Position numbers and translations under genes: made by a program
Notes under the pieces: model-generated
The model's database searches: none
Told to the model about the DNA's origin: nothing
What the model saw: only the letters and a program-made list of their open reading frames with translations
DNA from: an uncultured delta proteobacterium
GTDB taxonomy: Bacteria; Myxococcota_A; Polyangia; Fen-1088
Length of the DNA: 64,000 nucleotides
Direction: 5' to 3'
Assembly: GCA_963796685.1 (NCBI GenBank)
Contig: CAWCMR010000008.1
Location: 288,001 to 352,000 of the forward strand
Shown here: piece by piece, positions 9,792 through 13,051 of the stretch
How positions within the stretch are numbered: the stretch's first letter is position 1
How the letters are laid out: each line of letters starts with the position of its first letter

Positions 9792-11063
9792 ATGAAGCTC
9801 TCCGTCGCATGCAACTTCGACGATGCCCTCTTGAAGGGCCTCGCCGGCTATCCGGTGTACGAGGTTTACGGCAAGCTCACCACGGACTACTTCGGTGGGG
9901 GGCGCCCCGCCTTTTACCTGCCCGAGGTCAATCGCCGGCTGCTGGCGAGCACCGTGAAGACGGCGCACGCGAGCGGCATCCAGTTCAACTACCTGCTCAA
10001 CGCTTCGGCCATGGGCAACACCGAGTACACGCGGACCGGGCAGCGCAAGATGGAGGAGATGCTGGAATGGGTGGATGGCATCGGGGTGGATTCGATCACC
10101 GTGGCCAACGTCTACTTTCTGCGCCTCATCCGGCGGCGCCACCCGCGGCTCAAGCTGCGGGTCAGCTCGCATCGCTTCACGGACAACCCACGCAAGGTGC
10201 GTTTCTGGGTCGATCAGGGCGCGGACGTGATCGTGGTTTCCGAGGTCGGGGTGCACCGCGAATTCGAGACCCTCGCCGCGATGAAGGAGGCCGCGCAGGG
10301 CGTGGACCTGCAACTCATCGTCAACAACTGGTGCCGACAGGATTGTGCCATCGCCGGCAACCACGCCGTCGCGCTGTCGGCGGCCTCGCAGGCGAAGAGC
10401 CGGGGCTTCCCGCTCGACTACTGTTCCATCCTGTGCAACCAGATCCGGCTGCGCGAACCGGTCAACTACGTGCGCGCCAACTGGATCCGGCCCGAGGACC
10501 TGCACTACTACGAGAAGCTCGGCTACGACACCTTCAAGATCGTCGAGCGCAACACGCCCACACAGATCCTGCTCGAACGGGTCAAGGCGTATGCGCAGCG
10601 ACGGTACGACGGCAACCTCCTCGATCTGGTGCAGAACTACGCCTACCCGAAGGACAAGCTCGGCAGCGTAGGCAAAGACGCCAGCTCGCTTCGCCGCATG
10701 GTCAAGTACTTCGTCAAGCCGTTCACCGTGAACCTGTTCCACTTCCGCAAACTGGTCGATTTCGGGCGGGCTGCCAGCATGCTCTACCCACGCGAGGGCG
10801 AGAACCCGGTGGTCGTCGACAACCGCGCGCTTGACGGATTTCTCGCGCGGTTTGCCGAGCGGAACTGCCAGTCGACGGATTGCGAGAGCTGTCGCTACTG
10901 CCACACCTGGGCGGAGCGCGCGGTGAAGATCGATCCGGGCTACAAAGCCAAGCTCGAGCCTCTCTACGGCGATCTCCTGGGCGATATCGACGCGGGTGCC
11001 TTCTGGGAGCCCTACGCGCGGACCGCTGTGCAGGCGCTGCGACGGAGGCAGCCTCCGGGATGA
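9792..11063 (+). CDS. Peptidase U32-family Fe-S protein (UbiU/UbiV/TrhP/RlhA superfamily)
   Basis: TIM-barrel-like N-terminus (FNYLLNA, GVDSITVAN), Cys cluster WCRQDC...H...YCSILC, WIRPEDL, FKIVER, and C-terminal CQSTDCESCRYC. Confidence 0.85.
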   Translation: MKLSVACNFDDALLKGLAGYPVYEVYGKLTTDYFGGGRPAFYLPEVNRRLLASTVKTAHASGIQFNYLLNASAMGNTEYTRTGQRKMEEMLEWVDGIGVDSITVANVYFLRLIRRRHPRLKLRVSSHRFTDNPRKVRFWVDQGADVIVVSEVGVHREFETLAAMKEAAQGVDLQLIVNNWCRQDCAIAGNHAVALSAASQAKSRGFPLDYCSILCNQIRLREPVNYVRANWIRPEDLHYYEKLGYDTFKIVERNTPTQILLERVKAYAQRRYDGNLLDLVQNYAYPKDKLGSVGKDASSLRRMVKYFVKPFTVNLFHFRKLVDFGRAASMLYPREGENPVVVDNRALDGFLARFAERNCQSTDCESCRYCHTWAERAVKIDPGYKAKLEPLYGDLLGDIDAGAFWEPYARTAVQALRRRQPPG

Positions 11064-13051
11064 GCGAGCCGCAGGCGGCGAGGGACGAACCGACCATCCC
11101 CCCTGGGCTGTGCGAGCGCGCGATCGCGCGTGCGCTGGATTTTCTGGACTCGCGGCAGGAGCCCGACGGAGCGTGGCGCGGCGACTACGGCGGGCCCATG
11201 TTTCTTTTGCCCATGTACCTGGCCGCGCAGCACATCGGTGGTCGGCCGGTCGAGCCGCGCCGTCGGGAGGGCATGCTCACGTACCTGCGGGGGGCCCAGC
11301 ACGCCGACGGCAGCTTCGGCCTGCACGTCGAAGGCTCCGGCTGTCTCTTCACCACGGTGCTGTCCTACGTGGCCCTTCGCCTGCTCGGCCTGCCGGCGGA
11401 CGACGAGCGCGCGACCCGGGCGCGCGGCTTCATCCTCGGGCATGGCACCGCCCTCGCCTGCGCGAGCTGGGGCAAGTTCGTGCTCGCGCTGCTCAACCTC
11501 TACGACTACCAGGGCCTGGCGCCGATCCTGCCCGAGCTGTGGCTCCTGCCCACGAGCTTTCCTCTGCATCCCAGCCGCTTCTGGTGCCACACGCGACAGG
11601 TGTATCTGCCCATGGCGCATCTTTACGGGACGAAGGCGCGGATGCCCCCCGACGATCTGACCCATGCCCTCCGCCGTGAGCTCTACGATCGCCCCTACGA
11701 CAGCATCCGGTTCTCCGACCACGTCGACACCATCGCCGCCAGCGACGTCTACACGCCAGCCACGTGGCCGCTCAAGCTGGTGGGCCGAGCCCTGGGCCTT
11801 TACGAACGGGTGCACCCGGCCGGGTTGCGCAAGCGTGCGCTTGCCCGCTTGGCCGAGCACATCGATTTCGAGGACCGCGCTACGCATTTCATCCGCATCG
11901 GTCCGGTCAACGCCGTCCTCAACACGCTCGTGCATTGCTTCCGTTCCCCGCACAGCGAAGCCACGGAGCGCAGCTTCGCCAAGCTCGAAGGCTACCTCTG
12001 CGACGGGCACGACGGCACCAAGATGAACGGCTACAACTCGACCGCGCTGTGGGACACCGCCTTTGCTACCCAGGCCGTCCTGGCGACCGCACAAGCCGGC
12101 GCTCATCAAGGCACGCTCCGGGGCGCGCACGCGTTCATCGTCGCCAATCAGGTGCTCGAGGATCTGCCCGGCTACCGCCTTTACCATCGCCACCCCAGCC
12201 GCGGGGGCTGGCCGTTCTCCGATCGCGAGCACGGATGGCCCATCACCGACTGCACCGCGGAGGGGCTGAGCGCCTCCCTGCTGCTCGAAACGGCGGGCCT
12301 GCCGGCGCTGGGCTCCGAGCGCGTCCGCGCTGCGGTCGAGCTGATCCTCTCGTGGCAGAACCGCGACGGCGGCTGGGCCACCTACGAAAAGCAGCGAGTC
12401 GGACGCTGGGTCGAGCTCTTCAATCCCGCGCAGGTCTTCGGCGACATCATGGTCGACCACTCCTATCCCGAGTGTACGGCGGCGTGTCTCGCCAGCCTGG
12501 CCTTGTGGCGGCGGCGCCCGGCCGCCGAGAGCGACGACGTCCTCACGCACAAGGTCGCCGTGGCCATGCGCCGGGGCGAGAGCTTTCTGCGCCGCTCCCA
12601 GCGCGACGACGGCAGCTGGGAAGGCTCGTGGGGGGTCTGCTTCACTTACGGGACCTGGTTCGGCGTGCGCGGCCTATGCGCCGTCGGCGCCGCCAGCGAC
12701 GACCCGGCGCTGGCGCGGGCCTGCGCCTTTCTCTACGCCCGCCAGAACAGCGACGGCGGTTGGGGCGAAAGCGGCACGAGCTGCGCCGAGCGACGCTACG
12801 TGAGCGCGCCCAGCCACGCCGTCAACACCGCCTGGGCGCTGCTGGCGCTGACCAGCGCCGGTCAGGCCCACGATCCGCGCTGTGCCCGGGCGGCGCACTT
12901 TCTTCTCACCAGCCAGCGCGACGACGGCGACTGGCCGCGCCAGACCCTCTCGGGCGTGTTCAACAAGACCGCGCTCATCAACTACGAAAACTACCGCCGC
13001 TACTTCCCGCTGTGGGCCCTGGCGCGTTTCACGGCCGAGAGCCGCCTCTAG
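11060..13051 (+). CDS. osc: 2,3-oxidosqualene cyclase (cycloartenol-synthase-type residues)
   Basis: YGGPMFL, WCHTRQVYLPM, GYNSTALWD, EHGWPITDCTAE, GSWGVCFTYGTW and multiple QxxDGxW repeats. ATGA overlap with the U32 stop. Confidence 0.95.
   Translation: MSEPQAARDEPTIPPGLCERAIARALDFLDSRQEPDGAWRGDYGGPMFLLPMYLAAQHIGGRPVEPRRREGMLTYLRGAQHADGSFGLHVEGSGCLFTTVLSYVALRLLGLPADDERATRARGFILGHGTALACASWGKFVLALLNLYDYQGLAPILPELWLLPTSFPLHPSRFWCHTRQVYLPMAHLYGTKARMPPDDLTHALRRELYDRPYDSIRFSDHVDTIAASDVYTPATWPLKLVGRALGLYERVHPAGLRKRALARLAEHIDFEDRATHFIRIGPVNAVLNTLVHCFRSPHSEATERSFAKLEGYLCDGHDGTKMNGYNSTALWDTAFATQAVLATAQAGAHQGTLRGAHAFIVANQVLEDLPGYRLYHRHPSRGGWPFSDREHGWPITDCTAEGLSASLLLETAGLPALGSERVRAAVELILSWQNRDGGWATYEKQRVGRWVELFNPAQVFGDIMVDHSYPECTAACLASLALWRRRPAAESDDVLTHKVAVAMRRGESFLRRSQRDDGSWEGSWGVCFTYGTWFGVRGLCAVGAASDDPALARACAFLYARQNSDGGWGESGTSCAERRYVSAPSHAVNTAWALLALTSAGQAHDPRCARAAHFLLTSQRDDGDWPRQTLSGVFNKTALINYENYRRYFPLWALARFTAESRL

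Follow-up and report, generated by a model that had tools for sequence, protein, structure and literature searches.

The described system closest to the one reported here is the UbiU-UbiV pair of Escherichia coli (YhbU/YhbV). Both are U32-family proteins that bind 4Fe-4S clusters through conserved cysteines (PMC6747719); their substrate is a polyprenylated lipid, their oxygen donor is prephenate, and they are the anaerobic counterpart of flavin monooxygenases (PMC6747719, PMC10990095). The mechanism proposed for the pair is a two-electron oxidation of the pi-system, followed by the capture of hydroxide from prephenate decarboxylation (PMC10990095). In a 64,000-nucleotide stretch of DNA from an uncultured delta proteobacterium (contig CAWCMR010000008.1, positions 288,001 to 352,000; hereafter the window), the gene for a divergent U32-family protein overlaps a gene for an oxidosqualene cyclase (OSC). 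An annotation made from the sequence alone (the sequence-only reading) had proposed that this U32 protein supplies oxygen to squalene, or to a later sterol intermediate, without O2.

In most U32 families, a 4Fe-4S cluster is bound through a CX6CX15CX3/4C motif; UbiU and UbiV deviate from this common spacing (PMC6747719). TrhP and RlhA, which also belong to the family, are involved in the hydroxylation of tRNA U34 and 23S rRNA C2501, respectively, and both reactions are linked to prephenate and independent of O2 (PMC10990095). In sterol synthesis, the epoxidation of squalene is treated as the first step that requires O2 (PMC7306690, PMC12324236). The enzymes known for this step are a flavin squalene monooxygenase (SQMO/Erg1, PF08491) and an alternative epoxidase, both of which need O2.

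The window U32 protein and its orthologues, referred to below as the clade, resemble UbiU-UbiV in family and in the presence of conserved cysteines, and by analogy the window-type U32 may be set against the flavin squalene epoxidase. The differences are several. The clade protein is encoded by a single gene rather than as a heterodimer pair, and no SCP2/UbiT partner was seen. Its cysteine spacing is different, an extra CX4CX2CX2C occurs at the C-terminus, and the proposed substrate and product are an isolated alkene and an epoxide. Moreover, a chorismate mutase gene is physically linked to the U32 gene in the clade and unlinked at the E. coli ubiTUV locus. In contrast to TrhP and RlhA, clade members occur in a terpenoid context, not in one related to translation. 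The proposed product is the same as that of SQMO/Erg1 and the alternative epoxidase, and the position of the U32 gene next to OSC matches that of bacterial sqmo genes (PMC7306690); in contrast, the fold and the cofactors of U32 proteins are unrelated to those of the two known enzymes.

We consider it somewhat probable that the U32 protein is a prephenate-dependent, O2-independent enzyme that makes the oxygenated substrate of the cyclase. This view is taken because of the gene order, the near-restriction of the clade to genomes with OSC, and the pattern of presence and absence of squalene epoxidase, which are described below. Our literature searches, whose scope lay outside supplementary files and figures (the OSC synteny figure of PMC7306690 may show neighbouring domains that go unnamed in its text), found no link of U32 proteins to squalene, OSC or sterols, in keeping with the sequence-only reading, which knew of no U32 role in triterpenoid synthesis.

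The U32 gene recurs next to oxidosqualene cyclase genes

The gene pair is organised as follows:

9792..11063, plus strand: divergent U32-family protein, 423 residues, candidate prephenate-dependent squalene oxygenating enzyme
11060..13051, plus strand: oxidosqualene cyclase with a DCTAE motif, 663 residues, its start overlapping the U32 stop (ATGA)

Real reading frames were chosen by codon-position G+C. The U32 open reading frame (ORF) opens with MKLSVACNFD, and its TGA stop codon (11061-11063) overlaps the ATG of the cyclase (11060-11062); translation of both frames thus bears out the ATGA overlap at 11060-11063 that had been noticed in the sequence. The cyclase had been described as carrying DCTAE rather than the DxDD motif, and PITDCTAEG is indeed present. 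By this motif and by its profile matches the protein is an OSC: it scores 606 bits against TIGR01787 (cut-off 323) and 757 bits against the 2,3-oxidosqualene cyclase model TIGR03463, which is below the cut-off of that model (851), while the score against the NCBIfam hopene cyclase model (269 bits) is under the cut-off of 431. Pfam identifies two squalene-hopene cyclase domains.

When one genome per species was scanned, 104 relatives of the U32 protein came up; the best 80 loci are the basis of the locus counts. These are 58-94% identical to the window U32, and their hosts belong to Myxococcota, Spirochaetota, Fibrobacterota, Bacteroidota, Competibacteraceae and others. Neighbouring genes were found by tblastn with the window proteins and by all-against-all clustering of ORFs; the clusters were named by Pfam/NCBIfam. 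An OSC gene lies directly downstream of U32, on the same strand and within ~1.6 kb, in 41 of the 80 loci. The arrangement is therefore no chance neighbourhood, and the search for U32-OSC adjacency suggested by the sequence-only reading gave a positive answer. Adjacency cannot be judged in 12 of the 39 remaining loci, which end less than 1500 nt after U32.

The D-C-T-[AS]-E motif is found in 38 of the 43 neighbouring cyclase ORFs. Three of the other five are Fibrobacterota proteins with DTTAE, one lacks a motif, and one is of the DxDD type. The Fibrobacterota DTTAE cyclases beside U32 (L048:4584-6548, L051:12406-14358 and L055:12406-14352) are 40-43% identical to the window OSC. The DxDD-type protein is a second cyclase, with the squalene-hopene type motif DTDDTAE, encoded at one Spirochaetota locus (L064:2114-4000, minus strand) in the cluster of a U32-OSC pair.

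The U32 gene is linked to prephenate-making and isoprenoid genes

The commonest other neighbour of U32 is a gene fusion of chorismate mutase and DAHP synthase (CM/DAHPS; PF01817 plus PF00793; 506 bits against NF009239, cut-off 279). The fusion gene occurs in 39 of 79 loci, directly upstream of U32 and on the same strand. Its product makes prephenate, which is the oxygen donor of UbiU-UbiV (PMC10990095), a support for the proposal that the sequence-only reading had not foreseen. In Bacteroidota (L078:11469-12533, as well as L077 and L080), the fusion has the reverse order, DAHPS then CM, and maps directly downstream of U32; it is apparently an independent fusion that retained U32 as neighbour. 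In the source genome of the window, a CM_2 domain and a DAHPS domain are encoded on the same contig, ~518 kb from U32. The two domains (G000:C8:816330-818315, minus strand) are ~1 kb apart, both in frames given as 681 residues, which suggests one longer fusion with an unidentified middle part.

Other neighbours include two SQS_PSY genes and an amine-oxidase gene (hpnC/D/E-like), as well as genes for FPP synthase, DXS, DXR and an FMN-dependent IDI2-like protein; a polyprenyl synthase gene is found near U32 in 21 loci. The typical operon of the Myxococcota type reads hpnE-hpnD-hpnC / FPP synthase - CM/DAHPS - U32 - (GGR-family flavoprotein) - OSC, and that of Spirochaetota reads U32-OSC-DXS-FPPS-IDI2-DXR. 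Given the typical order, U32 sits between squalene synthesis and cyclisation. The sequence-only reading had held that its proposal would be refuted if close homologues were mostly away from terpenoid genes; genes for OSC, hpnCDE, FPP synthase and DXS/DXR/IDI adjoin them instead. The U32 and CM/DAHPS genes stand as a pair alone in 19 of 24 loci examined, and in genomes with the epoxidase the pair sits apart from OSC and epoxidase.

A gene for a flavoprotein of the geranylgeranyl-reductase (GGR) family (TIGR02032, 186 bits) directly follows U32 in 12 loci, mostly between U32 and OSC:

L020, L021, L022, L023, L025, L029, L031, L041, L045, L048, L051 and L055 (for instance, L025:11187-12359): GGR-family flavoprotein

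This flavoprotein might accept electrons from the U32 reaction, or it might reduce side chains. It was also considered as a hidden epoxidase, a role that is unsupported, as the protein has no PF08491 match and is missing from 29 of the 41 OSC-adjacent loci.

Squalene epoxidase is missing from most genomes with adjacent OSC

Squalene epoxidase was called by a PF08491 match at E<=1e-5 in the genomes carrying the loci, and was found in 29 of 80 (8 of 50 in one set and 21 of 30 in the other). Genomes tend to hold either U32 next to OSC or the epoxidase. For instance, 37 of the 41 OSC-adjacent genomes have no epoxidase, the four exceptions being the nearest relatives of the window, and 25 of the 39 non-adjacent genomes have one. 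In 12 of these 25, OSC and epoxidase are at most 8 kb apart on one contig, and U32 keeps only its CM/DAHPS partner. A strong OSC is encoded elsewhere in 34 of the 39 non-adjacent genomes; of the other five, one shows just a weak cyclase match and four are without OSC.

The co-occurrence of the clade with OSC was also assessed in one fixed phylum sample of 401 genomes, cross-tabulated by hand, with membership in the clade set at >=54% identity. OSC is present in 50 of these genomes, the epoxidase in 43 and the clade in 18. Fifteen of the 18 clade carriers have OSC, versus ~2 expected by chance. The clade is found in 7 of the 10 genomes that have OSC and lack the epoxidase, and in 8 of the 40 that have both. 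The three exceptions among the 10 are an OSC fragment, a divergent cyclase (458 bits) and a genome that is 82% complete. The association with OSC and with epoxidase-free genomes that the sequence-only reading had asked about was thus found in both surveys.

Other oxygen-linked genes were searched for in the set of 50 carrier genomes. The 17 genomes without a match to COX1 are all epoxidase-free as well, and all eight epoxidase genomes have COX1. The alternative squalene epoxidase belongs to the fatty-acid hydroxylase superfamily, and 25 of the 42 epoxidase-free genomes also have no FA_hydroxylase-family match. COX1, epoxidase and FA_hydroxylase are all absent from 14 of the 50 genomes. No P450 was found in five exemplar genomes that lack all three, or similar. 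One 5.18-Mb record labelled "chromosome: 1" (L043/G032) yielded no epoxidase, FA_hydroxylase, COX1 or P450. Carriers of the clade thus span probable anaerobes or microaerophiles at one end and hosts capable of O2 respiration at the other.

The clade is a conserved and divergent U32 subfamily

The window protein scores above the gathering cut-off for the peptidase U32 superfamily (PF01136, 39.4 bits against 22.4), and the match covers residues 86-152 and only positions 3-69 of the 233-position profile. In the orthologues L078 and L079, the same match reaches 46-48 bits and extends up to profile positions 3-193. The protein does not belong to the TrhP, UbiU or UbiV equivalogs: the NCBIfam models for TrhP and UbiU give trace matches only (21.4 bits, cut-off 534, and 15.7 bits, cut-off 440, respectively), the UbiV model gives no match, and no RlhA model is among those listed. 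A search of the ESM Atlas returned U32 clusters only.

The description of the gene as Cys-rich holds. The protein has nine cysteines, seven of which (C181, C185, C215, C359, C364, C367 and C370) are invariant in an alignment of 30 sequences; C211 and C7 are >=90% conserved, C211 being replaced by Ser in 2 of the 30. Mean column identity in this alignment, which spans phyla, is 74%. The cysteines are arranged as C181-x3-C185-x25-C211-x3-C215, followed in the C-terminal region by C359-x4-C364-x2-C367-x2-C370. The first four are placed after the strand corresponding to that of the CX6CX15CX3/4C motif.

An AF2 model of the protein (pLDDT 80.2, pTM 0.83) features an alpha/beta barrel and a helical C-terminal domain, with one low-confidence stretch in the Cys loop (182-207); the predicted fold is that of a U32-type barrel. 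The best Foldseek match in the PDB is the U32 peptidase Mk0906 (5d88; E 4.9e-9, target-normalised TM 0.69, 19% identity), the only U32 structure among the matches listed; the next ones are generic TIM barrels with E >= 1e-5. At 247 residues, Mk0906 consists of the barrel only and lacks anything equivalent to the C-terminal Cys-rich domain of the clade. The clade is a tight and very conserved U32 subfamily of TIM-barrel enzymes, probably with Fe-S. Prediction of a complex of OSC (residues 16-615) with U32 (residues 1-400) gave a score of 0.00, which counts neither for nor against binding.

The wider U32-like family comprises 2038 representatives at E<=1e-3 and 596 at <=1e-30; on clustering at 50% identity, only one to three of the highest-scoring representatives (778, 530 and 469 bits) stand for the clade itself. 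In a quick tree (quick search, SH-aLRT support only, in which L058, a short match, is omitted and the L016 row has a stop in the translated match), a long supported branch lies between the 80-member clade and its paralogues. One subclade, of 16 members and with support 100, includes only genomes that have the epoxidase, none of which has an adjacent OSC. The sequence-only reading had counted a grouping with tRNA, rRNA or quinone hydroxylases as contrary to its proposal; no such grouping with TrhP or UbiU emerged, the scores being far below the NCBIfam cut-offs.

The contexts of wider-family members were examined at four paralogue loci and at L061. The paralogues (36-43% identity) are adjoined by genes for B12-binding radical SAM proteins in 3 of the 4 loci and by no terpenoid genes; in L061, which has no OSC, U32 follows a B12-radical-SAM gene. 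The U32 and B12-radical-SAM genes (L061:8533-9999, L086:9184-10620, L087:4648-6219 and L089:9306-10796) look like a different, uncharacterised two-gene system.

Other features of the window

The window has a G+C content of 67%. The source metagenome-assembled genome (MAG) measures 7.31 Mb in 26 contigs, with 88.6% completeness and 6.5% contamination. The other features considered here, identified by Pfam/NCBIfam where a family is named, are the following:

4262-4987: phosphatidylserine decarboxylase-like gene, upstream
5038-5904: DUF3419 gene, upstream
6250..9544, minus strand: divergently transcribed sensor/sigma-54 activator, with PAS-HisKA-REC-Sigma54 AAA-HTH_8 at 6250-8733 (Pfam) and an N-terminal part of no named family at 8657-9544
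9762..9777, plus strand: sigma-54-type -24/-12 promoter-like site TGGTGCGGACCTTGCA, 15-30 nt ahead of the U32 start codon
13223-13684, minus strand: DUF35/OB-fold protein, upper mevalonate trio
13697-14854, minus strand: thiolase, upper mevalonate trio
14893-16017, minus strand: archaeal-type HMG-CoA synthase, upper mevalonate trio
~16361..17813, plus strand: squalene epoxidase of the FAD, O2-dependent type (PF08491), frame broken near 16968
17859..19004, minus strand: squalene synthase (SQS_PSY)
28501-28913: AcrB-type transporter, split by an apparent single-base indel
52250-53779: rpoN

The squalene synthase and the upper mevalonate enzymes had been recognised in the sequence-only reading, which overlooked the squalene epoxidase gene at 16361-17813. 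This gene is the sole PF08491 match in the source genome (SE domain, 109 bits, E 2e-31). The GGGLTG sequence of the FAD-binding N-terminus is present, but the SE domain is in another frame, and alignment with L004, a locus of 90% identity where the orthologue is an intact 454-codon ORF, locates a single additional base near 16968. A +1 indel near 8779 interrupts the regulator, which L004 encodes in one ORF; the AcrB-type transporter is broken near 28500-28900. Intact single-ORF relatives are known for the epoxidase and for the sigma-54 activator. Because three conserved genes are broken within 64 kb, all three breaks, including the frameshift in the epoxidase, are read as probable assembly indels rather than as signs of pseudogenes. 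Among public sequencing runs, none contains >0.07 of the words sampled from the window DNA, and no RNA run is among those listed.

The TGGTGCGGACCTTGCA pattern has three matches in the window, versus 0.40 expected. Inspection of upstream sequences by eye revealed a TGGTGCGGACCTTGCA or TGGTTCAnnGTTTGCA-type site ahead of U32 in 14 of 17 loci of the window's subclade. The interval 9400-13400 yielded no sigma-70-like promoter. A homologue of the regulator is present in 31 loci, as determined by ORF clustering. In the window, a sigma-54 promoter controlled by the divergent PAS/REC sensor-activator probably directs the expression of U32. Synteny of the DUF3419 gene and the regulator is kept in 13 loci of the window's subclade. 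An ORF on the plus strand (8768-9610, "orf8768") was dropped as a conserved neighbour; codon-position GC and translation identify it as a shadow ORF of the N-terminus of the minus-strand regulator.

Proposed role of the U32 protein

In the scheme proposed here, the U32 protein would oxygenate a terminal double bond of squalene without O2, with prephenate donating the oxygen atom, as for UbiU-UbiV. We infer that a two-electron oxidation of the pi-system at the terminal C=C would be followed by hydroxide capture and then by ring closure to the epoxide. The product, either 2,3-oxidosqualene or an equivalent 3-oxygenated substrate, would feed the translationally coupled OSC. In most carriers, U32 would replace the flavin squalene epoxidase. 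In the window and the genomes nearest to it, the two enzymes would operate in parallel, as UbiU-UbiV and UbiH/F/I do in E. coli; since the window has an epoxidase gene, U32 would be a second route here, not the sole one. The broader claim, that several phyla make 2,3-oxidosqualene without O2 by means of a dedicated U32 Fe-S enzyme that moves oxygen from prephenate to squalene, is advanced tentatively, as something a little short of probable. The O2-independent supply of oxygen by U32 postulated in the sequence-only reading is supported by comparative genomics, that is, by synteny, co-occurrence with OSC, absence of the epoxidase and the CM/DAHPS neighbour, and it is on evidence of this kind that the proposed activity rests for every clade member.

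A number of observations weigh against this proposal. The likeness to UbiU is weak (hhalign probability 39%, E 3e-4, residues 46-142 only), hhalign yielded no alignment of the window U32 with E. coli UbiV, and a sequence search of the PDB with the window U32 produced no match (best E 1.6). The C-x3-C-x25-C-x3-C spacing differs from the recurrent CX6CX15CX3/4C motif of U32 proteins (PMC6747719). The U32-linked reactions described so far hydroxylate aromatic or pyrimidine rings, and even for these, direct in vitro activity had yet to be demonstrated (PMC10990095); epoxidation of an isolated alkene differs from this chemistry. The window has its own epoxidase gene, in which the frameshift is probably an assembly error. 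Three genomes of the 401-genome sample have OSC and neither the epoxidase nor the clade, and 3 of the 351 OSC-less genomes carry the clade, all of one family and 96-100% complete. Likewise, among the genomes of the 80 loci, four have no OSC and one has a weak cyclase match only. COX1 is present in 33 of the 50 carrier genomes, including 25 of the 42 epoxidase-free ones, cytochrome bd in 4 of 5 chosen oxidase-poor genomes, and an FA_hydroxylase-family protein, hence a possible alternative O2-dependent epoxidase, in 23 of 50. Strict anaerobiosis of the hosts, taken as a general statement, is ruled out by the COX1 counts; of the co-occurrence in anaerobes envisaged in the sequence-only reading, the part concerning OSC genomes without epoxidase stands, but the hosts are not uniformly anaerobic. 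Finally, nearly all genomes are MAGs, so that absence calls hinge on completeness, which is unreported for the locus-derived genomes, and related genomes are not independent, for which reason no P values are given.

The gene order and the co-occurrence with OSC would suit any sterol-linked oxygenation. U32 might act at another O2-requiring step of the pathway, such as, on the cyclised protosterol, O2-independent removal of the C-4 or C-14 methyl groups or hydroxylation of the side chain or ring, or it might oxygenate the product of plain-squalene cyclisation; a later sterol intermediate was already allowed for in the sequence-only reading. In epoxidase genomes, moreover, the U32 and CM/DAHPS genes stand off OSC and epoxidase and could back up any O2-dependent step. 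We regard this explanation as unlikely. Some enzyme must supply the epoxide in the 37 genomes in which OSC is adjacent and no epoxidase is seen, and it is U32 that is conserved at the position linking squalene synthesis to the cyclase. The five exemplar genomes are free of P450, giving no sign of a longer tailoring pathway in need of backup. The pi-system chemistry proposed for U32 proteins also accommodates an attack on C=C better than the hydroxylation of an unactivated sp3 C-H.

Less likely still is a prephenate-linked U32 enzyme that works on a non-sterol substrate, such as a polyprenyl quinone, another isoprenoid lipid or an RNA base, and merely travels with isoprenoid clusters. The absence of the epoxidase would then reflect incomplete MAGs, an O2-dependent epoxidase that escaped recognition (FA_hydroxylase or GGR-like flavoprotein) or non-functional cyclases. 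That U32 and CM/DAHPS often stand alone as a pair, that carriers without OSC exist and that a polyprenyl synthase gene is a neighbour in 21 loci all agree with such a role. However, OSC accompanies the clade in 15 of 18 carriers of the phylum sample and in 34 of 39 non-adjacent genomes, the position ahead of OSC, often with overlap, recurs in at least three phyla, and the TrhP and UbiU scores are far under their cut-offs. As for candidate hidden epoxidases, the GGR-family flavoprotein of 12 loci and the FA_hydroxylase-family genes of 23 of the 50 genomes would qualify, but the former is missing from most OSC-adjacent loci and the latter from 25 of the 42 epoxidase-free genomes. A U32 protein with no part in oxygen transfer, whether a "peptidase" of structural or proteolytic function or an accessory to cyclase maturation or scaffolding, is very improbable. 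The historical annotation of the family as collagenase-like peptidases points that way, and no U32 protein has residues assigned to the catalysis of oxygen transfer. Yet seven invariant cysteines in two clusters and a chorismate mutase neighbour point to redox and prephenate chemistry, the characterised U32 members serve O2-independent hydroxylation (PMC10990095, PMC6747719), and such a role would not explain why some carriers have the epoxidase and others lack it.

That squalene epoxidation requires O2 is the premise for using steranes as biomarkers of oxygen and of eukaryotes, and for placing OSC and epoxidase in time at the rise of oxygen. If U32 makes the cyclase substrate as proposed, sterol (protosterol) synthesis in epoxidase-free genomes would need no O2, and neither steranes and protosteroids nor molecular clocks of epoxidase and OSC would any longer prove free oxygen on their own. 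The recently discovered chemistry of organic oxygen donors would widen from ring hydroxylation to the oxygenation of alkenes, and a single gene could enable anaerobic triterpenoid production in engineered hosts. The same route would account for the retention of OSC without the epoxidase in many genomes of fen, groundwater and similar origin.

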